Shown here piece by piece: positions 30,501 to 62,289 of a stretch of 64,000 nt of DNA; the first letter of the stretch is position 1, and every line of letters begins with the position of its first letter. The stretch covers positions 53,878,001-53,942,000 of the forward strand of contig NC_059431.1 of NCBI RefSeq assembly GCF_021028975.2, written 5' to 3'. This DNA is from Sphaerodactylus townsendi. Taxonomy: Eukaryota. Below the pieces are notes generated by a model. That model saw only the letters and a program-made list of their open reading frames with translations. It did no database searches and was not told where the DNA came from. The position numbers and the translations under genes are program-made.

Positions 30501-30917
30501 AGGTGGCTGCTCCTATGCGGAAAGAGTGGATCCTCACTGGGATCACAGCCTTTTAATCAGCGTCCGAAACAACAGTCCAGCTTCTTCTTGGTCCAATGCT
30601 CGAAAACTCGTGGACGATAGCACCACGCCATTCCTGAGTCTCAGCAGCCAAGAAGGCTGAGCTCAGGGTGTGGGGTCCTTTATACCTTGGCTCCTCCCAC
30701 CTTTTAGGCTTGGAGCCAATCAATGCAGATCCCTGCAAACTTTCTAATAGGCATTGCCTCTTGCAAGCAACCACCCTTTGCCTGTTTTGCTCACCACAGC
30801 CGCAATGGCTGCCCCCATTGAGTCGGTTGCTGCTATTTGTCGAAGGCTTTCATGCCCAGATTCAACTGGTTCTGGTGTGTTTTCTGGGCTGTGTGGCCGT
30901 GGTCTGGTGGATCTTGT

Positions 30918-30959
30918 TCCTAATGTTTCACCTGCATCTGTGACTGGCATCTTCAGAGG
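30918..30959 (-). ncRNA. Minimal type I hammerhead ribozyme motif (PLE-associated)
   Basis: - strand reads cct-CTGAAGA-t-gcc-(13 nt)-ggt-GAAA-catt-agg: CUGANGA and GAAA core boxes, stem I cct/agg, stem II gcc/ggy. Confidence 0.7.
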
Positions 30960-31018
30960 TGTACCACAGAGGGAAGTCTGTTACACCTAATGTGTAACAG
31001 ACTTCCCTCTGTGATACA

Positions 31019-31060
31019 TCTCTGAAGATGCCAGCCACAGATGCAGGCGAAATATTAGGA
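31019..31060 (+). ncRNA. Minimal type I hammerhead ribozyme motif (PLE-associated)
   Basis: tct-CTGAAGA(31022-31028)-t-gcc-...-ggc-GAAA(31049-31052)-tatt-agg. Confidence 0.7.
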
Positions 31061-32375
31061 ACAAGATCTGCCAGACCACAGCCACACAGCCCGGAAAACC
31101 CACCAGAACTATAGCATATGTTCAGAGGACTATAGCATATGTTCATACAGAATATAGCCCTTGCAAACTTGAAATTTCCAGAGTATATGTGATACTTCAC
31201 AGTCATATGTGGTAACTTCACAGTCATAAGAACTTTGTATTGTGTGAATTAGCCCAGCCTGTGGAATCTGATATAGACTGATCCCTGTAGGAGTGCCTCT
31301 TTTACTCTATCTGTGCTATGCATATTAAACTTCAAATGGTACTTTTAAAAAATTAAAATTCCAGTGTACTTGCCTCCAAAGAACCGGTCAGGAAGCACTG
31401 CCCATGGAATGTCTCACCATCTGGAAAAAGGGGGGGGGGGGTGTTATCCAAATTGATCTACACATGTCAGGGCCATAATGTGCAAAGGTATCTCCTTGCT
31501 AGCCCAGAGCAAACCTGTGTACTTTGGGTACTTTAATATACTTGGGATCTTAAACCTGTGTATACCAAAGACCAACAGTGGGAAAAATGAGGACAGGAAG
31601 AGTGTTTTCTTTTATAAACAGAAAAAAACAGACCAAATTAATCTATGCAAGTAGAAAAAGAGCAATGAAAATTGCAGAAAGGCAAAAGCAATGTGGTGAA
31701 TGACACACAAAACCTTTCCTTAGAAAACTGCCAACTTACTAAAGAATAAAACTAAAAGGAGCAGACCTTGTGGATCAATTTACAAGAAAAAAACATGTTT
31801 ACAGCAAACTTACAGGTTTCATCTGAGCCACATTTGTCTTCCTTTCCTTGCAGGTACTTAAAGCCTGGGAGACTGGAGGCATGAACACTTGGACTAGAGC
31901 CAGATGATTGGCCCATAGCTTGCAGCCTTGTCAAGTCAAAACCAGCTAAAGAGCTATTTTCTTTGTTTGTTCTTTGATAGCCCAACCCAGTTCCTGAGGG
32001 CACCCAGCCCCCCCCCCCACACATCTGAATTGGGCTGCCCATGTTTTATTTGAAAAAATTGCATGGTGGTAGTTTCCTGTACATCTTTTTGGGAAGAAAA
32101 GTAGCATTGAAATGTCATAAATAAAAATTCATGTACATTTTCTTTTAAAAAAATACCCAACAATTTCATACTGACTGACAGCTAACTAGTTTTCTTTAGA
32201 ACTTTCTTTACGTGATCATCTATCCTGGCCTTGCTGATTCACTTTGGATACTGCTGGAGTAATACAGACAGTAAATTTGCAACTGCAGTTTTTGGAAAGA
32301 ATCTGGCAATTCTGAAACAGTTCCTTTCAAAATGTGTAGAACAAAATGTGTAGAAATGTGTAGAACAACTCACAG

Positions 32376-49359: not shown

Positions 49360-50117
49360 CATTAGTCAAACAACTATGCAACACTGGCTATTATAATAAC
49401 AGGCAATAATAGTGTGGTAAACCAAGTTTTGATGTGCAAACTGGGGACTGAAAGATTAAAGCCCCTCTGTTAATATGTGCCTTCAATTTATTCTTTAAAA
49501 GACTGATGGGTATCTTTGATGGGCATCATGTTTGTTTTTACAGCTTTCAGATGAAACTTTTGAAGGGTGACATGCAAACTAATTGAGTATTTGGAAACTG
49601 TGGGCACTATGGTGATCCATGTAGGTCCATACGGCAGACCAGAGACTCATAGGATCAATCTATGTGGATTAGCTTAAAGAGGGATTGCAGAGCAAAATTA
49701 CCCTGTTGCCTGGTAATTTTGCATTCAATCCCCCTCTGCCCCTTCAATTTCTGATTTAGTACTTCTAAACCAGCCATGTGAAAAGTAGCATCTGGAGAAC
49801 CTGAAAGGAGTTTATAACTCATTCTAATTATACTTTATATTTATTTATTTTCAAAATTGACCTGTCTCCTTTTTCAGAAGTGCCATTTACACCCTGGTTG
49901 CAGCTGCTGGACTGTATCAGTGCTACGGTGGAATGACTGGAGCCATAAGATGTTTTTCAAGCACCAAAGTTAAAAGACAGTTAAAGTTAGCAGACTCCTG
50001 ATGGAATATCAAGCAGTTGTTGGAGCTGAACAAATAATGGACCTACTAAAGGAAATGTTGGTTTTAATGTTCAATGTAAGCACACATTTTGTGCAAAATC
50101 ACCTTCTTTTTGAAAGA

Positions 50118-50189
<72 letters not shown>

Positions 50190-50204
50190 AACAACAACAA
50201 CAAC
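50118..50204. repeat. (ATG)n microsatellite followed by (AAC)n
   Basis: ~23 perfect ATG units; this run produces the poly-Met and poly-His ORFs in the ORF track. Confidence 0.95.
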
Positions 50205-51420
50205 CCCAGAGGGCTCAGGGTTAAAAACATGGTTATGGACACTAGTCACAGTAAAAACATGGTTATGGACACTAATATAATTAACATCTGCTGTGAGCCT
50301 TGTTTCTTAAGGAAATGTTTAGTTTGCAGGTATTCTATAATTTTCTTCCTTCTATACACTTTCAGTTGCTCAACCCCCCTACTCTCATGTTCAATGACTA
50401 CTAAAACATAGAAGCATTTGAATTAAAATAAGGAATTCCTGTTGTGTATAAAAAAGAAGCCATTATTTGCCAGCTGATTTGGGAGGATTAGATTTATCCT
50501 GGATACATCCAGGAATATATTTTCCTCAAATAGGTTATTAGAATGATCTGTAACTGGATCTCCCAGTGTTTGCAGCTTAAACTTTTTGTGTAATAAGGGA
50601 GGGGCACAGTGCTTGAGCATCTGTTTTGCATACAAAACTTTCCAAATTCAACCCCCCTCATCTCTTGTTAAAATAAAATCAGATATTAGGTGATTTAAAA
50701 AATCTCCACCTGAAATTCTGGAGAGCCTCTGCCAGAGTAAACAGTACTGACCTGGACAGACCTCGAGTCTGACTCACTATAGGGCAGCCATGTCTTCATG
50801 ACAGTTTTAAAAGCTGTTGATTTGGATTTGATACACATGGGTGGGAGGGGGATTAAGTCCTTCACCAAGGATCTTTTCCCAAAAAAGATTGCCTCACTCT
50901 ACAGATAGTACTTGTCCCATCAGGAAAAACAATAAGCATCCATACTGTGCTTTCATTTTTCCTAGTTGGAACTACAGCATGTTTGGGACTTTGATTTATA
51001 TCAAGGAGATGCTAATGGCTGCTTTTGAAAGCTAAACCTACATGTCTGTATAACCAATGCAAAATGCCATTTGCAGCTTATAAAAGAAGTGCATTATAGA
51101 AAAACCACTGGTCACAGGGTGCTTCATGTTTGTTAGGTCTAGCTTTGGATGTTTGTGCATCCTGAATGAAAACTTGGCTCTAAATACATCCTGATCTCAC
51201 ATCAAACTTCCTTCCATTTTTTAAAAAACTTTACTACTAAGTACCCACTGTCTCAAGATGTGGCTGAACTTTGAGACACCCTTGGCTGCACATGCATTAT
51301 TCCCCTAGCCTTCTAGTCAACTTCCATCCACATTATGTTTCGTTTCCTCAGTCTCCTGGCTCCTTCTCTTTGTTCCTCTCATTCTTGCATGCTGTTTCTC
51401 CCATATCGCATACCTCTAGC

Positions 51421-51454
51421 AAATCAAATCAAATCAAATCAAATCAAATCAAAT
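51421..51454. repeat. (AAATC)n microsatellite
   Basis: Six perfect units. Confidence 0.95.
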
Positions 51455-54400
51455 GACCTTTATTGGCATGTGATACCTCTAGCATTTCAATATTAATTCT
51501 GAAATTATACTATGTTCAATTTGTAACACCCTTCAATTTCTTGAGTAACACTGTATCTTCCCTTTCCCCTGTTAGTGATGTACACTTGTGTACTTTTAGA
51601 AAACACTGCTAAAAAGCAATCCTGATGTGATTGTATAGCTGCATTATTTTTGTGTAGTGTTTTATCAATATGTTCACTGATTAAAAAATCATCCAAAAAA
51701 GAATCTTGATGCAGCCATACATCCAACTATTTCAAGATTGCTTTTTAATAATGTTTTATCAATGCACCTGTTTATATAGCATTGGCAGAGGGAGAAAAAC
51801 ACAGATGACCTGATAGAACTGTGAGCTGTGTCAGCATAGCATTCTGTACAAAATTTAGAAATAAAAATGGAATGAAAAATTACTAATTAGATCCATTTCT
51901 GGAAGAAAAGTTAACAAGACTTAAAAGCACTCCTAACTGTAACAACTTTCATTTGGGGGGAAACAAAAAAACCTGACTGGGGCTGATGTTGCACTTTCTA
52001 AATGCTCCGTGGCTTAGCCAGGGAGCATACCTGCTGTGGGGCTTCTCACCCTGCTTGTAGTTCCCCACTCCTTCCTTCACTTGAGTCAAGGTCGGTGAGG
52101 GAAGCTCCAAATGATTCACCATGAGCCCGAGGCTTTCCCATAAGCACCACAAGCTCTTCCATAGTCTCTTTCACGCAGGAGAGGGCAGCCTGTTTCCTGC
52201 AATTGGATTGGCTGAATCTTGCCCCATTCCTCCCACTCATTCACTGTTTTAGTTGAACACAAAACAGATGCTGAGAATCAGTGCCCTCACACACACACCC
52301 CATCTAAAATCCTTGCATGTTCGACGGGATTACCATCCTCTACCTCCCCATCTAAAATGTAAATCCCAAATTCCTTGCATGTGCGATGGAATTGCCGTCC
52401 TCAAACCCCCCCTCCGTCTAAAATGTACATCTAAAATCCTTCCGTGTGTGAGAGAATCGCTACCCTCCTGTTCGCGGTGCCTGCACAAGCCGCTTTTCTG
52501 CCCAAGGTTTCTTACTCCTTTCTAAAAACCAAGGTTTCTCCCTCCATTTTTTCACTGCGGGGGGGGGGGGGGGGCGCTGCTTCTCAGTGCCTGTCCATTG
52601 GTAGGGCGGGCCAGAGCGATGAGGCGGGACAACTGGCCCCATTTCTGCAACGGAGGAGTTTTGCCTACGGCAGTGGAAGCTTCCAGAGCAACAAATGGGC
52701 ATTTCAAAAGGACCTTTGCGGTTCAGAAAATTTGCCGAGCAAAGCCATTGCCACGGGGCAGTTCCAGGGCAGAAATGTGGCAGCCACATTTCAGGACCGG
52801 GAGCTGTGCAAAACTCCCGATTGAATCGGGGCATTCCCCGTGCCAATCAAGGGGCAATTTCCATGCACAAAATCAGCCTGGTTGTTTGCCTCTCCCACCC
52901 AGAAAGTTCCTGGTGGGCCAATGGGGACCAGGAGCAAAATTACCTCTGCAGAGATCACAGCTTTGCTTGCTCCAGATCTGTTTTAACATCATGATCTTCC
53001 CCTGTCAGTAGTGAAATGGACATTGAGTGGTTGTGCAAAGGTGCTAACTTGAAAAGCTAATGGAGAATTGCCTAAGTTATGGAAGAAAAGTTTTTTAAAA
53101 CCCCTTTGCTATATCAAAGCAATACATTGAAGCCATTTTGTATCTGCAGAGAACAGTTCTGTCGCTCCTTCAATACAAAACAGAGCTGACTAAATCATAG
53201 CAATATTTGGTATAAAACGAAATGCAGATTAGAACAACTTTATTACCTGATAGATCAAATGTGCACATGTCATAGTTAATATAACATTTACTGAAACAAA
53301 TAAACCAGGAAATGAATGGAATTAATCATTGAACAAGCAAACTTGCTGGCAAAAGACAAACCTCCTGTTCCTCATATTCACTCAGATTTAGCAAGGGAGT
53401 ATTCTACATAGAACTGGATATGAGAACAGCTGTTCTGCTTCAATATGAACAAAGAACCAATATTCTTAGCAACAATGCTTTGAATAGATCAATTTGGTGT
53501 AGGGCTTATCCTCTTGCTAGACACTGTAATATCAAGGGCTTTTTAAAAAAAACCCTGCCACCTTGTGCTCAATGTTTGTGAACATGTGCAGAATCCTCCC
53601 TTTCTCCCACTGAGGGGAACAAAGAACCTAAAAACAAAATGGTTCTGAAAACTTGCTCTGCTTCCATGTCCTGCTTCACTCTGATTCATTAAACTGGAGG
53701 CAGTCTTCATATTAAAGTAAAAATGATGACTTAGTGGTAGAATATCTGAGGCTCCAGGTTCAATCCCTGGCATATCTTGTTATAAGAATCAATTGGTAGG
53801 TCATGTGAAAGCACTGCCATAGAGACAAACTAGACATTATGTTTTTTCACTTGTCCATACTTGTTTTCCTGTATTCCCCACAGTCAGACAGCAGCTGCAA
53901 GGAATGCTTCTTAAAAAATAAAGTACACTCAAATGCTTTGGCCCTCAGTAGGCTCCCTATCCCCCAAGTGGAATATTAAACAATTGTGGGTATTATCAGG
54001 GCCCACGCTCTTAATATAGTACTTCCACAAAATGGCAGAGCTGCTCTCCAAGCTTTATTCTGCTATTTATGGGGATGCATTTTGTCTAAGTGCAGCATTT
54101 TTTGATAAAAACCTAATTTCCTCATGTCTGCTACTTTTATTCTTTAGGGCACAGATTTCATTGTTGTTGCTACATTCCAAAAATGCCTATGATTGGCAGT
54201 CTTCTACTATTGTTAACAGTAATGTTTAACTAGCACATTGTGAGCTAATGGGGTGTAGTAACTGAAGTGATAGATGAAGACTGTGGAGGCTTGGATTCCA
54301 GTCACAACCTTTTAGCCTACCTTTCCTTACAGTGTTGATGTGAGAATAAAATGTGATGAGAGTGGAGGTATAACATCCTAAGCTTTTTGGAGGAATATTG

Positions 54401-54864
54401 GGATAGAAATCTAATAAAAAGTGAAATGGAAGCATATTGCTTTAACTTCATGGCACAGTGTGGATGTGAACCTGGATACCCTAGATCCTAGTCCAGCATC
54501 GTAACCACTATCATATTGCAACTGGATATTACAAGTGTGGAGGTTTTGGGGTTTTTTGCAAAATGCCAATAAAAGACCACAGGTTGCTAGTATTCCAAGG
54601 GTCTTTGCTGCAAACTTGTAATAGTTTTCCATCCCTAGTTTGATATCAGTTCAGTGTTCCTCAAAAAATTGTAGTTCAATGAGGGTGTTGATAATTGCTA
54701 CCATGTTCCCACAATGGCTGTTCCCAGGGTTACCCAAGGATAAAGAAAGACTATTGTACTAGTTTGCAGCTAATTATGAAGGTCCTGCTACATCAGTATT
54801 GTATTGTAGTCTTAGAATGCTGGCTATGATTTCACTGCAGAATTATTACTTTAAAGGAGATGGG

Positions 54865-55184
54865 AGCACAGCAACAGTACTGTTGCTGCTGCAGGGAATG
54901 CAAATGTGAATCACTCCCTGGACTGAAAACCCCCACCCACAATATAATACAGTCAACCACACCTTTGCGTAGCACGTTCCACCCAAACACTTACTGATTG
55001 GTTCCCCACCCTGGGACATGGACAATATATACCCCACTAAAAACATTCCCTTCTCACTGAACGCAGCATGTAACAGGCTTCTCTCTGTGATACACCTTTG
55101 AAGATGCCAGCCACAGATGCAGGCGAAATGTTAGGAACAAGATCTACCAGACCACGGCTACACAGCCCAGAAAACCCACCACAC
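54865..55184 (+). mobile_element. Penelope-like element terminal repeat with a hammerhead motif (55095-55136, core C>T)
   Basis: Homologous to 30992-31109 and 56174-56296; reads cct-TTGAAGA-tgcc...ggc-GAAA-tgtt-agg. Left boundary approximate. Confidence 0.75.
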
Positions 55185-56178
55185 TGACATTGGGAAATGT
55201 AGTTGGGATGTTCTGGAGGCTAAATTTAGGCTGGCAGCCAAGGTAACAGGTTGAAGTCCAGGATCCCCAAGGTGGAATTCTCAGAAATGTTACCTGTTCC
55301 ACGTGCAGGGCGAGCTAGGCAAGCGGAGATATAGGTTCTCAATGCATGGGTGAGAAGGTGGTGTAAGGTAAAGGGTTTCAGATTTGTCAGGAACTGGGGA
55401 ACCTTTTGGGACAAGGAAATCTGTATAAAAGGGACGGGCTTCTTCTCAACTCAAAAGGAACCAGGCTGCTGGCGCTCAACATTAAAAAGGTGGCAGAACA
55501 GCTTTTAAACTGATCCCTGGGGGAAAGTTGACAGGAGCAGGGGTGACTTTGGTTCAGAATACAGTATCTATGGGGATGTAGACAGAGAGGGAGGTTTTTT
55601 AAAATCAACCACATACAAGCATAGCAATGTGCATATGATAAGTGATAGTGTCTACAAAGGGCTAGAGGGCAAAGCACATAAATCTCAGGTTAGGGACAGG
55701 GCATACAGGTGTCTCTATGCTAATAGTAGAAGCCGACCTAAAATGGGGGAGCTGTAGTACAGGGTTTTGAAGGAGGACATTGATATAGTGAGCATCACAG
55801 AAACATGTTGGAATGAGGAGAACCAGTGGGATGCTTTGATCCCAGGTTACATGCACTACAGGAAGGATAGGACAGGGCCTATCAGGGTGGTGTTGCCTTC
55901 TATGTCAAAGAGAGCATAGTGTCACATAAAATAGACTATGCAAGGGCAGCTTCCTACAGAAGCACTGTGGATATCAATACCAGGTGTGAAGTATAGTCAA
56001 ATATCTGGAATATATTATTGTCCCCGACCAAAGCGCACAGGAGGATTCTGAGATGGAAAAAGAAATTAGAGAGTCCATCAAAAGCAAAAACGTAGAGGTA
56101 ATGGGTGATTACAACTATTCCCACATAAACTGGAAAAAATGCATGATCAGGTCATAGTAGGAGAGAGCATTCCTGGAC
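55185..56178 (+). mobile_element. Internal CR1 LINE fragment: ORF1 esterase C-terminus + ORF2 APE endonuclease N-terminus
   Basis: ORF1 remnant DIGKCSWDVLEAKF...FSEMLPVPRAG...LNAWVRRWC..GFRFVRNWGTFW..LYKRDGLLLNSKGTRLLA..LLN* (stop 55511-55513). ORF2 remnant CLYANSRS..DIVSITETCW..GY..YRKDR..GVAFYVKE..VMGDYNYSHINW..AFLD. Confidence 0.85.
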
Positions 56179-56296
56179 AGTATATACCCGAATAAAAACA
56201 TTCCCTTCTCACTGGACACAGTGTGTAACAGACTTCTCTCTGTGACACACCTCTGAAGATGCCAGGGACAGATGCAGGCAAAACATTAGGAACAAT
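56174..56296 (+). mobile_element. Penelope-like element terminal repeat with a hammerhead motif (56250-56291, GAAA>AAAA)
   Basis: Direct repeat of 55019-55140. Confidence 0.75.
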
Positions 56297-57519
56297 GTAT
56301 TACCCTAGCAAATGGAGGGGTGTGTATTATTGGGGAAGGGTTTTGTGCAGAATAGGTCCACCCTCGGACAGCAACTGGTTACGCATTAAGAAATTTCACC
56401 TTCCAGAGAAATTAGCTTTGACCAGTTCCCAAGATGACTGTGTTTGCAGTCATCTAACAAGATGATTTAAACATAAAATAACTGACTTGCATTAGAAGAC
56501 ACAGTTGTCAAACCTCTGATCCTTTCATTGTAACTATCATAAAATATATTGTTTATTGTTTCTTCTTAAATATAGGCTCCTTTTCTCCAAGCTTATTAAA
56601 CTTTAATTTTTCAATTTGCAAACACGCCTCCAGAAAATTTATACTAATGTATAAATTACTAATGTACAAATTTCCCCTAGGGGGAACAGAAATTGTTTCT
56701 ACAAATGATTGTTTCAAAACATATACTTTGCTGTTTTATATTCCAAAGGCTCAATTAGAAATTTAATAATTCCAGATAGAAAATTTCTCTTGCTTCCATA
56801 CCTATCCTGTAGGTGGAGCTGAGTGTTGTTATGAGCATATATATTTAATTTCTAAATGGATTCAATTTGGTTTTCATTCTCACTTATTTTTTAATTGGTT
56901 TCGGAATTAATTGTAGTGAAAAAAACCTTGAAAATCTGAAGCCCTAGAAGCACAACGCTTTTCTTTGTTTCATTTATCAGAACAAATTTTATTAACAAGG
57001 AGAAGGAATAAGCCATAAGTTGAGAAAAAATGAAAGTTCCACAAGTCATCAAAGGGCCAAACTACACATTAATTTATATCTTTTTGCTATGCAAACCCAA
57101 ATCTCTTCCTCCTTCTGGCTGTTTATGCTGTTTATGCTGTGAGGGAGAAAAAAGAGTAAAAGTACCCTTTATCTCCTGCAGGGAAAAATGGCACCTTAGG
57201 AGAAATGGGGCAGCAAGGGAGAAAGAGTTAAGCTCTCATCCTTTTGCTGATGCAAGCAAATTCACAGCATTCCATCAGTACATTTCATTTCAAGTGAAGC
57301 TAAAATATCCAGTCATAGCTCTCTCTCATAATATATTGTTGGTTGTAAGATTGTCTCCTTTTTATTCAGCCCTTTTGTTGTGGAAAAAAAGCAAACTTTG
57401 TGGAGAGCTGTTGGACATTAATAGGCATATATTGCTTTGCCCAGAATTGTTCTCCACAGCCAAACTAAAAACAATTGTTGCCTATTTGAGAGATCTATCT
57501 GTTGAAAGTCCTAACTGCG

Positions 57520-58690
57520 AGGATCAGGTGGGAGGACCAGGCCTTCCATCAGTGTCCGCTTCATTGCGGTGTGCCCCACTGTCCCCGCAGTTGTTTAACA
57601 TCTACATGTGACCCCTTGCTCAGCTGGTGCGGAGTTTTAGACTGATCTGTCACCAGTATGCTGATGACAGTCAGCTCATTCTGTTGATGGGGGGGCAGCC
57701 ACTGCCCCTGCGGCTCTACAGCATTGTTTGGAGGCAGTTGCTGGGTGGTTGAAGCAGAGCAGGTTAAAACTTAATCCAACGAAGACGGAGGTCCTTTGAC
57801 TGGGCCGTGAAGGGGGGGATTGAGGATTTTCAGCTGCCAGTGTTGGAAGGGGTCTCTTTGACATTGAACCTCTTCGGCTCGCAACCTGGGTCCACCTGGA
57901 TTCGTCTCTCTCAATGGAGACCCAGGTAGCACTTGTAAGCCGGGTTGCTTTTTTTCATTTTCGCCAGGCCCAGCAGCTGGCCCCTTATCTCTCCCAAACT
58001 GACCTGGCCACTGTGGTCACCTCCAAGTTAGACTATTGTAACTCACTCTACATGGGCCTTTCCTTGCAGCTGATCTTGAAACTGAAGCTGGTCCAGAATG
58101 CAGCGGCCCGCCTTCTTACAGGTGGTTCGGACAGGAATCATATCATCCCTGTGCTGTGCCACCTGCACTGGCTCCCAGTGGAATTCCAGATCATCTTCAA
58201 GGTGTTGGAACTGACCATTAAGGCCCTTTACATCCTGGGGCCCTTATACCTTCGAGACTGCCTTACCCCATATGTCCTGACTCTGTTTGGCAGAAGTGAA
58301 TTTGCTGGTGGTCCCCTGCTTTTATGCTTTTATGGCCCTGGCCCCAGCCTGGTGGAATGCTCTTTCTCAAGAAGTTAGGGCCCTGTGGGACCTTGGCGAG
58401 TACCTCAGGGCCTGCAAAACTGGGCTGTTCCACCGGGCTTTTGGGGAGGCTGGCTGCTGAGTTCCACCCCTTTCTGATGCCCATGTACCACCAGTTTATT
58501 TTCTGCAATTTGCTAACCCCTTCCTGGGGTTAGGACCGTATGCCATCCATCAATTTGAGGGTGGGATGTACTGTTGCTACTGTTTTAACTGGATTTTATG
58601 GATTTTAATGATGTTATTCGATTTGTTTTGTATACTGTTATTTATTGTCTTCTGTTTATCTTGTACACTGCTCTGAGCCCTTTGGGGATA
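57520..58690 (+). mobile_element. L2-clade LINE, 5'-truncated (RT end, C-terminal domain, 3' UTR)
   Basis: LSPQLFNIYM, HQYADDSQL, WLKQSRLKLNPTKTEVL, SKLDYCNSLY.GL...KLVQNAAARLLTG..HI.PVL..LHWLPV. Confidence 0.9.
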
Positions 58691-58849
58691 NNNNNNNNNN
58701 NNNNNNNNNNNNNNNNNNNNNNNNNNNNNNNNNNNNNNNNNNNNNNNNNNNNNNNNNNNNNNNNNNNNNNNNNNNNNNNNNNNNNNNNNNNNNNNNNNNN
58801 NNNNNNNNNNNNNNNNNNNNNNNNNNNNNNNNNNNNNNNNNNNNNNNNN
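58691..58849. other. Assembly gap
   Basis: Run of N. Confidence 1.
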
Positions 58850-60293
58850 AGGATTGCACTGCAAATATAGCAGCTGACTGCGGGTAATAAAACACAAATG
58901 TATATGATTAGGATATGGAGATAGTCAAAAGTTCCAGTTATGTCTGGCACTATTGTCCTTAGCTGCAGAGAAAAGATTTCCAAATATTTCAGTTGCTATA
59001 TATATATTTCTTTTAATATAGGCTTTATGTATTTCACAGACTTTTCTCTGTCTTAAAGAGATGACAGCATTTATTGAGTACATTTTATGTCATTCTTTTT
59101 CCAAGGAGCTCAGGCCAATATATATCATTCTTTACTGTCTATTTTGTGCTCAAAACAATTCTGTGAGGTAGGTTATGTTGAGAGAGAGTGACTGGCCCAA
59201 GATAAACTCTTCAGTGCATATATGCAGTTCTGAAAAACTGTTTATTGTCACATTTAAAATTAACTTTAGCTGCATCAGCTTAGGGTATTTATCAATTTAT
59301 TATGTCAAAAAGGAATCAAAAGGCACAATAACAAACTATAATTCCCTTTCAAACAGGAAAGGAATTTTGTAGCACAAACCTAAAATGCTTTCCTGATATT
59401 AAGCCCTGTTAAATAGACACCAGCAAGATTCTGAGTTGATTACCTGCTTACAATTGTTCTCTAAACCATTCAAAGAAATTATATTCAGAACTGAAAGGGG
59501 TTCTGAAAATCTTGGGAAAACATTTTTCAATTAACTATCCACATAAATGTGATTTTTTTTTTAAAAAAAAAATGATACACACAACTGAAGCACAGTGTAC
59601 TGGGACATTATTTCTCAAGGTTTCAATTGGGCAAAATTCTTTGTGGTCCAAGCATTATTTGAAATGAATAGGGCTGTTAGATAATAAGGACTAGAGGAGC
59701 TATGACCTTGTTACTTCTATTTTACACTTTTGTTCTTTTTGTCATAAGGTTTCAGCTATTCACCAGAAATGAGCCTTCAGTCATCATAAGAGTAACTGGT
59801 TGAATCATTAATTTGTCTTCATTTTCTAAAGAGATGGGTGTCTTTATTTTAGATATGAAATATTTAACATAGTAACTAGACATTCATCCAGTTTCTATGC
59901 CCTACATTTAGGTCGTCTTTGCTTTTATGTTGTTTTATATTTTGTGGGAAACCATATTTGGGAAACTAGGGGTTCCCATGTGGGAACTGGAGAACACCCA
60001 AAATTATAATTGCTCTCTCGATGACAAAGACCAGTTCTCCTGGAGAAAATGGCTGCTTTGGAGGGTGGACTCTATGGCATCACATAATGTCAAGGTTGCT
60101 TCTCCCCCTCCACCCCCCCTTCCACAATTCTACCCCCATGTCTCCAGGAATTTTCAAACCTTGAGCTATCAACCATCAGGACTGACTTTCTGTCTATACT
60201 TTGGAGGAGCTGAACATTCTCTGTAGGGACAGTGGAACCCACCAGAGGTTTCTTCAGGTCTGGGGGCTACCTCAGAACTAACTTGCCACCTCC

Positions 60294-60769
60294 CAGGGAT
60301 GTAGGTATAGATTTTTATGGGGGGGTTCAGGGGTGGGGCCACACCCCCACCCGCCCCTAGGGCATGGCCACGCCTCCCCAAGCCCCGCCCCTGGCCTAGT
60401 GCTTATAAAAGCAGCTCTCCAAGGTCGGGGATGGCAGACTCCCCTGCCCTGCCCTGCCCTGCCCTGCCCTGCCCTGCCCTGCCCTGCCCTGCCCTGCCCT
60501 GCCCCCCCCCTCCGCTCTGGGCAGAGGCATAGAGGGAAAATGGAGCTTGGTGCAAAATCTGAGTTTTGCGCCCCCCCTCCAGGCAGCTGCTGTGATGCTG
60601 GAATCCACCCCCAAACAGCATCACTTTCAATGGTGTTTAAACTAGAGAGCCTAAATTCTCCTTTTAAATCCACCTTAAAGGGAGAATCTGGGGTCCCTAG
60701 TTAAACAACATTGAAAGTGATGCTGTTTTGGGGTGGATTATCCCCCACCCTGAAAAAGCATCACTTTCA
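60294..60769. mobile_element. hAT-like non-autonomous element fragment containing a (GCCCT)n microsatellite
   Basis: Inverted copy of 16430-17004; (gccct)~12 at ~60443-60503. Confidence 0.7.
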
Positions 60770-60875
60770 GTGTGGCGTAGTGGTTAAGAGCAGGTGCATT
60801 CTAATCTGGAGGAACCGGGTTTGATTCCCTGCTCTGCCACTTGAGCTGTGGAGGCTTATCTGGGGAATTCAGCCT
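60769..60875 (+). mobile_element. 5' part of a young tRNA-derived SINE
   Basis: A box TGGCGTAGTGG (60773-60783), B box GGTTTGATTCC (60818-60828). Same family as 37490-37771, 3'-truncated. Confidence 0.8.
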
Positions 60876-62289
60876 GTTGTAATGAACTTGCCCCACCCTG
60901 AAGGGCTGGCGTACAGCAGGCCTAATGGAGAAGGTAGATTTCATATACTTGGACTATTCAACATTAAGAAGATTAAAAAGAGATACTATTTCAGGATTTG
61001 ATGTGGCTGTGATATGCAAGGATATCACTGATTGAAAGATCTAGAGAGGTAAGAAGATCCATGCTTTAACTGTGAATGAAAGATCTCAGAAATTCTAAGA
61101 ACAAAGATCTCAGAAATTCTAAGAACAAAGTAAAGTAGATTAAACAAGAAATATTGGACTTAAAATACAAACTCTAATATAGGTTCATTTTTTGAAATTA
61201 TTCTGTGAGAAGATAAAACAGAAATAAATGTGTGTGGGAACTTATGAGATTTAGAAGATCCGAGTGGCTACTGTAAGAATATTTACAGAATAGAGAAGAT
61301 AAGCAAACCAGACACTGTGTAATTGAAACTTGAATTGCCTTCAGGTATTGGACTTCCGGTTCCGGGTTTTGGACTTCCGGTTCTGGATTGGTGCCTGCCA
61401 AACGTCTTTGGGGACACTCCGGAGAAATCCATCCCAATCCTTGAAACCCCCCAAAGGGGGAAGAAAATTCTCCACTCTATTGGTAGAGGAGAACGACAGA
61501 AACAAAGCGAGAGGAGAGCTGGCTGCAAGCAGCTTCCCCAAACCCGCTCAAAACAGCAAGCAAGGGATGGCCATTGGTATGGAGAAGGTAGCACCATAGG
61601 AGCCACCGGAGAAAAAGCGATAAAAAAACCAGAGAGCCTAAAGAGGTCCTTCAGCAAATAATAGCTAACTATAAGAAACAAAACGTATAGAAATAACGTC
61701 AACGGGAGAAAAAGAAAGCGGAGCGGTGCATAGCGGAAAAGCGGAGAGGCGGAAGAAGAGCGGCGCCTTCGATGCTTACATAATGGGTACAGCCAGATGC
61801 CAGCCACTCAAATAATAACCTAGAAGTGAAAAGAACTTTTAGGCTGACCCGTTAAGCAAACAAACAAAGGCAAATTAAAAGGTACCTTCCAAGGGTAAGT
61901 GCGCGAAGTGGAGGTGGCGAGGAGGTCTTTGTCCCAGGGGGGGTGAGACTACAGTAGAAAAGCGGCCCCTTTAAGGGAGGGACTCCCCTCGGCTACAAGT
62001 AAACATAACGCTTGCCCTGACCTGGAAGTGCCTAAATTAAACCAATAAACAGCTGCAGAACAACAGGAAGTATTTGCACAGCTAACCAATGTGGTGCAAA
62101 CAGGAAGAAGAAATCACTCAGATAGGCGACGGAGAGTGAATGAGCAATGGAGCCTAAACCAGGAAGTAACGTAAATGGGTGTAAAAAACAAAAAGCTGCG
62201 ACCTGAGCAACTCAACTTGCGGTTTTGATATGAAACTGGCAACTGACCATATTTAATTTCCTGGAAACAGACAAATAAAGGACAAAGCA

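Follow-up and report, generated by a model that had tools for sequence, protein, structure and literature searches.

The window analysed here is the whole 64,000-nt stretch G000:C7:53878001-53942000 of the Sphaerodactylus townsendi genome (1.81 Gb), and positions are counted from its first letter unless a contig is named. Within AT-rich DNA, with no N nearby, it contains a compound unit of repeat pieces that all read on the + strand, with the PLE and CR1 parts in sense orientation. From left to right, the unit consists of an inverted arm (54865-54878; no strand assigned), whose sequence almost perfectly reverse-complements the opening 14 nt of the next piece (10 nt exact); PLE-L (54879-55183), a 5′-truncated PLE repeat ending 3-4 nt before the commonest 3′ end of its family; an internal piece of an older CR1 subfamily with broken reading frames (55182-56177); PLE-R (56174-56295), a PLE fragment cut at both ends; and the last 83 nt (56293-56375) of a rare GC-rich repeat, here called R3. 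An 8-nt direct repeat, a candidate target-site duplication, brackets these pieces. Its left copy lies at 54868-54875 (9/10 when one mismatch is allowed), and its right copy (56368-56375) coincides with the natural end of R3, beyond which the flank (56376-56471; no strand assigned) is single-copy. An earlier sequence-only reading had taken the locus as two PLE terminal repeats bracketing a CR1 fragment. Two co-oriented repeats do surround an internal CR1 piece, but the fourth piece was overlooked and the right repeat is truncated: it is not a terminal repeat with its natural end but breaks off 43 nt short of the usual 3′ position, and what adjoins it on the right is the 3′ end of R3 and not unique DNA.

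Over 122 nt, PLE-L and PLE-R form a direct repeat (55019-55140 and 56174-56295) that is 88% alike. Upstream of the terminal repeat, the family carries a reverse transcriptase (RT) frame, which in copy L038 matches RVT_1 in Pfam (E 3e-7); a GIY-YIG-like motif with CxC is visible by eye in the L038 translation, and Pfam gave no match on that decayed frame. We provisionally apply the clade name Penelope/Poseidon-type, by likeness to the published description of PAc, the Poseidon element of Anolis carolinensis. At non-CpG sites, PLE-L differs from the family majority by 5.1% (15/294) and PLE-R by 6.0% (7/117), and both carry the same two-site haplotype, which is present in 10 of the 32 family copies that could be scored (37 of 69 were unscorable). 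The 3′ ends of the family cluster near +4 and +37, forming two ends ~35 nt apart; of 44 unbiased family segments, 24 have their end at -1 to +10 and another 11 fall at +27 to +42. PLE-L ends near the family's RT start. PLE-R begins at a non-canonical site and stops at -43 relative to the main 3′ end, and therefore lacks both RT start sites. An internal AC-rich RT start has been demonstrated in vitro for Anolis Poseidon (PMC11167929).

The usual PLE layout is a partial tandem with a 5′ inverted arm (PMC8557442), and inverted arms are common in the family of the window repeats. In a contiguous 1.664-Mb sample, target duplications of 9-13 nt accompany 9 of 17 head-to-head PLE insertions, and a second PLE subfamily, ~77% identical, shows the same head-to-head and target-duplication pattern. 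A typical head-to-head pair of the same family lies elsewhere in the window (30873-31105), with one arm ending at the short site and the other at the tail. The window also contains a MITE-like inverted repeat at 60599-60773 with 39-nt arms and a third partial copy, where matches to miRNA models were weak and far below the cut-offs. Further, a head-to-head PLE hammerhead pair lies inside a ~550-nt unit found at G000:C1:50029738-50030281 and G000:C7:53823223-53823800, in copies ~90% alike that both end in a motif resembling a hAT-MITE terminal repeat. Two such copies within 1.66 Mb point to an amplified DNA element that carries a PLE.

The repeat of the PLE family contains a minimal hammerhead of the type known from PMC4209133 and PMC11167929. 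The motif had been noticed in both window repeats and is present in both, but neither core is intact. In the left hammerhead (55095-55135, in PLE-L), the core box reads TTGAAGA at 55098-55104, which corresponds to C3>U with G8 unchanged, that is, without a compensating G8>A. In the right hammerhead (56250-56290, in PLE-R), AAAA replaces GAAA at 56280-56283, which corresponds to G12>A, and G12 is essential for the hammerhead. C3G abolishes cleavage in PAc, and C3U is not among the changes assayed there (PMC11167929). Since the right-hand change is of the CpG-decay type, both hammerheads were probably intact at the time of insertion. Both core boxes are kept in 15 of 29 other, selected family copies, and the core is kept in 32 of 65 unbiased copies from the 1.664-Mb sample. 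An Rfam scan of 50000-62000 gave no hammerhead match, including at the two window copies; the motifs are minimal and lack helix III. Single-strand folding of both window motifs and a third copy gave no z-score signal (0.4-0.7) and is uninformative.

The CR1 piece runs from the end of the ORF1 esterase (stop at 55511-55513) through a spacer into the ORF2 endonuclease. Copy L007 of the source family matches GDSL lipase (PF13472), Exo_endo_phos (PF03372) and RVT_1 (PF00078); the window piece is 87-88% identical to such copies and 5.6% diverged from the majority of the older subfamily (52/928 non-CpG sites). In all 29 fetched copies the CR1 sequence continues past both junctions, and within 54000-57500 none of these copies matches outside 55182-56177, so that the 3′ end is not retained. 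The proposal that the piece is purely internal and has no other recognisable CR1 beside it thus holds. Among the older copies compared, no donor locus was found, at most 7 of the 52 rare alleles being shared; L271 was considered as a donor and rejected, its best local match being 91% over 141 nt but the difference reaching 9.7% over 601 nt. At one of the 29 CR1 loci, L015:3528-3636 (G000:C9, near 67142292), a near-full-length young CR1 that differs from the young majority by 0.5% abuts with its 5′ end the tail of an old, 88%-identical PLE in the same orientation, and is interrupted before its far end by an element that we take from its motifs to be Gypsy-type. A bias of CR1 for PLE ends is possible from this single case. 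Because L015 shows one, a plain CR1 insertion can give the left type of junction, and an internal-only CR1 is a weaker sign of capture than had been claimed, because the right edge may also be a deletion scar. Downstream of the unit, at 57500-58500, there is a decayed RT-like frame with no Pfam RT match, which resembles an L2/CR1-group LINE.

R3 is a ~644-nt repeat with fixed ends (loci L086-L104 and L267-L270). Its 3′ end motif is the same as that of the window piece in 18 of 19 fetched loci and lies 4 nt earlier in the remaining one; the motif has 38 matches genome-wide, and no other R3 copy was found in the 1.664-Mb sample. The window piece differs by 9.0% from other R3 copies, which differ by 7.0% among themselves, and is like the PLE and CR1 pieces in age. 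R3 carries TATA-like and AATAAA motifs, which would place the window piece in sense orientation. It lacks TG..CA ends and a consistent duplication, and AA is common to both ends and to the tandem junction in L090; a recombinase may be what integrates R3. The idea that R3 is an LTR with a primer-binding site behind it was considered and rejected: its ends are as just described, the end motif with the following 7 nt has five matches, only one other of which shares the extension, and 56372-56480 is single-copy.

The junctions are joined by short microhomology, of 2-3 nt, CA(A), between PLE-L and CR1 (random joins P 0.17-0.06), of 4 nt, TGGA, between CR1 and PLE-R (P 0.019), and of 3 nt, CAA, between PLE-R and R3 (P 0.059). 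The second of these had been given as 5 nt (TGGAC, 56174-56178), but 25 of 29 CR1 copies read TGGAT and none reads TGGAC. Both 5′ truncation and the repair of deletions would leave such microhomology just as readily (PMC2912911; PMC11702581). The 8-nt bracketing repeat has a chance of 1.0-1.4% against random windows, or 2.8% for at least 7 nt over all fold-back points, and mismatched pairs reach it in 1.1%, as against the 9-13 nt duplications of head-to-head insertions. Its two copies belong to the end of R3 itself and to a part of the arm; it lies in a CAG/CAA-rich word and was noticed after looking at the data, and around the three-piece PLE-CR1-PLE unit the bracketing repeat is only 5-6 nt, which is not above chance. 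The 8-nt repeat is a possible target-site duplication of the four-piece unit. An exact 10-nt inverted arm appeared in 0 of 20,000 random trials, and the arm could represent either fold-back synthesis or target DNA that matches by chance.

Thirteen runs from five organisms contain part of the stretch, and six runs were aligned. The left outer junction, from the left flank into PLE-L, is found in contigs of organisms A (one run), B and C, and the right outer junction, from R3 into the right flank, in contigs of organisms B and C. At 54819 and 54864 the four runs compared, one of them from organism A, differ from the window, which has either private variants or assembly errors there. Contig breaks with overlapping ends at 54088-54090 and 54479-54488 suggest separate insertions in organism E and organism C. 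Organism E is ~8% different in the flanks (26 differences over ~330 nt). It matches the window through the arm to 54882, 4 nt into PLE-L; beyond that point come 229 letters of different sequence, and the match is regained at 56472 after 99 unaligned letters. No E contig aligned at 56341-56461 or on the single-copy right flank (56376-56471), a hint that R3 is missing from E and arrived after PLE-L. The first 30 of the other letters are absent from G000 at ≤3 mismatches and from 100 kb either side; compared with CR1, PLE, R3 and the nearby flank, they gave 9-11 mismatches at best.

Two readings fit organism E. On the one hand, it could represent the ancestral state, in which the arm is target DNA and at least 229 nt were lost at insertion; this reading has to set the exact 10-nt arm against its absence from the random trials. 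On the other hand, E could have inherited the unit and later replaced 54883-56471, which fits the arm and both anomalies and poorly fits the missing R3 contigs. Reading the 8-nt repeat as a duplication needs E to be secondarily rearranged. As one outgroup, E gives no clean empty site, and with the pieces 5-6% diverged and the E flanks at ~4% per lineage, the order of events is not derivable from divergence.

Weighing these observations, we lean towards the locus being a single-copy PLE/CR1/PLE/R3 patchwork produced by one faulty insertion, in which a PLE RT switched between RNA templates. A one-event origin is favoured by the co-orientation, the equal age, the microhomology and the possible 8-nt target duplication: all four pieces point the same way, R3 is rare, the two PLE pieces share a haplotype, PLE-L ends near the RT start of its family, and no CR1 donor locus turned up among the older copies compared. 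The divergences behind the age comparison are uncertain by 1-2 points. That the PLE RT switched templates onto CR1 RNA, as originally proposed, is still the best single explanation, on circumstantial grounds and with four pieces to explain instead of three. Against it stand a low prior for capture, because a screen of 131 PLE loci turned up no second PLE-internal TE-PLE unit, together with the non-canonical start of PLE-R, the plain insertion of the L015 type and the lack of a clean empty site. The weights given to the explanations here are rough counts and do not come from a formal model.

In such an event, the nicked target would prime at the R3 end via 8-10 nt of pairing, and the RT would copy 83 nt of R3 before moving via CAA to PLE RNA (122 nt), via TGGA to CR1 RNA (~990 nt) and via CA(A) to the normal internal start of PLE RNA (305 nt). 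The cDNA would then fold back and join the left flank, leaving the 8-nt duplication; afterwards the unit would not have spread, and its ribozyme cores would have decayed. We infer the priming at the R3 end, the three jumps, the fold-back, the duplication and the enzyme that nicked the target. A variant would keep the PLE-CR1-PLE capture and explain the R3 junction as a deletion scar or as a priming site inside a resident R3 copy. The fullest form of the scheme, in which a vertebrate PLE RT began on the RNA of an unrelated repeat with the help of 8-10 nt of target pairing, jumped through three RNAs, left a target duplication and briefly gave a product with two intact hammerheads 1155 nt apart and an RT start between them, amounting to the aborted birth of a retrozyme, is a tentative proposition that we regard as rather doubtful.

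Nested insertion followed by deletion is a serious rival, though in our judgement the less likely one. PLE-L with its fold-back would have been joined by a 5′-truncated CR1 at its 3′ end, PLE-R would have inserted into CR1 and R3 downstream, and a deletion would then have removed the 3′ part of CR1, the end of PLE-R and the first 561 nt of R3; alternatively, PLE-L may have entered CR1 with target loss, or the PLE-R insertion may itself have made the loss. A PLE-R without its 3′ end facing an R3 without its 5′ part is what a single deletion would leave, and the same deletion could have removed the 3′ end of CR1. The co-oriented young CR1 on an old PLE tail at L015 (1/29 loci) speaks for the scheme, as does the frequency of paired repeats: among 65 hammerhead-bearing segments in the 1.664-Mb sample, three direct pairs 100-1500 nt apart were seen, including this locus, against 1.9 expected (P=0.30), and ~2,100 are expected genome-wide. 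Organism E, with the arm and apparently no R3, fits two time points, and its extra letters, absent from G000 and from the neighbourhood, could be a deleted spacer. The nested scheme nevertheless asks for four co-oriented insertions of much the same age in a space of a few kb. PLE-R must have only one arm, the pieces at the left junction must abut exactly and the deletion must stop inside a rare repeat; the scheme also leaves the 8-nt bracketing repeat and the shared PLE haplotype to chance. Junctions of the window type are moreover rare, at 2 of 57 single-armed 5′ ends and 6 of 147 3′ ends, including this one.

A patchwork made by DNA-templated repair, in which a break was mended by copying short genomic pieces via microhomology with no RT involved, is improbable. 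Mechanisms of this kind are of the polymerase-theta or break-induced type, and short microhomology at every junction, the fold-back and the single copy would agree with them. All pieces are co-oriented, however, the ends of PLE-L and R3 coincide with the RT start region and the natural repeat end, respectively, and no locus that could have donated the CR1 piece with its rare alleles was found among the copies compared.

It is very improbable, and already largely refuted, that the unit is an amplified or re-mobilisable, retrozyme-like hammerhead-cargo-hammerhead cassette, as the sequence-only reading had suggested. The two motifs do lie 1155 nt apart in direct orientation and, as argued above, were probably intact at insertion; both cores are now mutated, and minimal hammerheads cleave poorly even when intact (PMC4209133). 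PLE-R lacks an RT start site, and in Anolis Poseidon the template has to include the first 172 nt of the ORF (PMC11167929). Searches with the junctions for an amplified composite family found the window alone spanning any junction among the best 40 of 1522, 1087 and 266 candidates scored per search, and in a whole-unit search 0 of 39 other matches extended past the CR1 ends (best 40 of 8725 candidates). This single-copy result is a lower bound, as only the best candidates were scored, and a true copy would rank first. The same reading had also named chance-level pairing as one of two results that would count against it, and the pair counts above are at chance level; the spacers of the other two direct pairs and of three targeted loci are not continuous TE. 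The least credible explanation is an assembly chimera of collapsed repeats. In its favour, the inner junctions are not among the read matches listed; against it, organisms B and C each have both outer junctions in single contigs (organism A has the left one too), the best run contains 0.78 of the sampled words of the stretch, of which the unit makes up 31%, and the pieces carry private old mutations. The patchwork is predicted to be inactive today and, because both ribozyme cores are mutated and no second copy was found, the locus is likely a dead accident rather than a new mobile cassette.

If one event made the locus, it would be a natural record of PLE RT jumps onto unrelated RNAs, and if the reading of jumps through three RNAs is true, it would show that PLE RT shuffles LINE RNA in the germline, which would offer a route from pLTRs to cargo-bearing retrozymes. 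We give the case modest weight, because the single copy is decayed and shows neither spread nor function, and because sequence capture between PLE repeats is already published for Adineta. A literature search of limited coverage (few subscription journals, no supplements) found no report of a PLE capturing CR1 in reptiles.

Several known systems share parts of this layout. Animal non-LTR retrozymes (bioRxiv 10.64898/2026.07.22.740005) are likewise hammerhead-bearing, non-coding and related to PLE pLTRs, but form multi-copy families of 51-972 bp units, often in tandem; the window unit is single-copy, has 1155 nt between its motifs and has both cores mutated. With neither intact cores nor a multi-copy family found, it is not a retrozyme. 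Two-transcript L1 insertions (PMC11702581) also join co-oriented pieces of different RNAs by microhomology and arise by template switching or end joining. They were made by the L1 enzyme from poly(A) priming in cell culture, whereas the window unit involves three RNA species and no poly(A), is germline and is old. In Poseidon PAc (PMC11167929), the hammerhead overlaps the ORF start, two internal RT start sites correspond to the short end and the tail, and both strands are extended. The PLE family of the window similarly ends at about +4 and +37, whereas the cores of its two copies here are broken, and the available part of that source reports no jumps to RNAs of other kinds. A further parallel comes from Adineta vaga, in which an NRPS gene lies between Pen3a pLTRs and spacers are known for Pen1, with 'a few other cases' (PMC3846280; reviewed in PMC6431247). 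A single event is proven in that case by an 8-bp duplication together with an empty allele, whereas no empty site is available here; in the window, moreover, the right pLTR is cut (-43, without a natural RT start), a third repeat closes the unit and the cargo is a LINE fragment. In both, foreign sequence sits between a direct pair of pLTRs, the 5′ end is inverted or palindromic, and movement is attributed to PLE enzymes.
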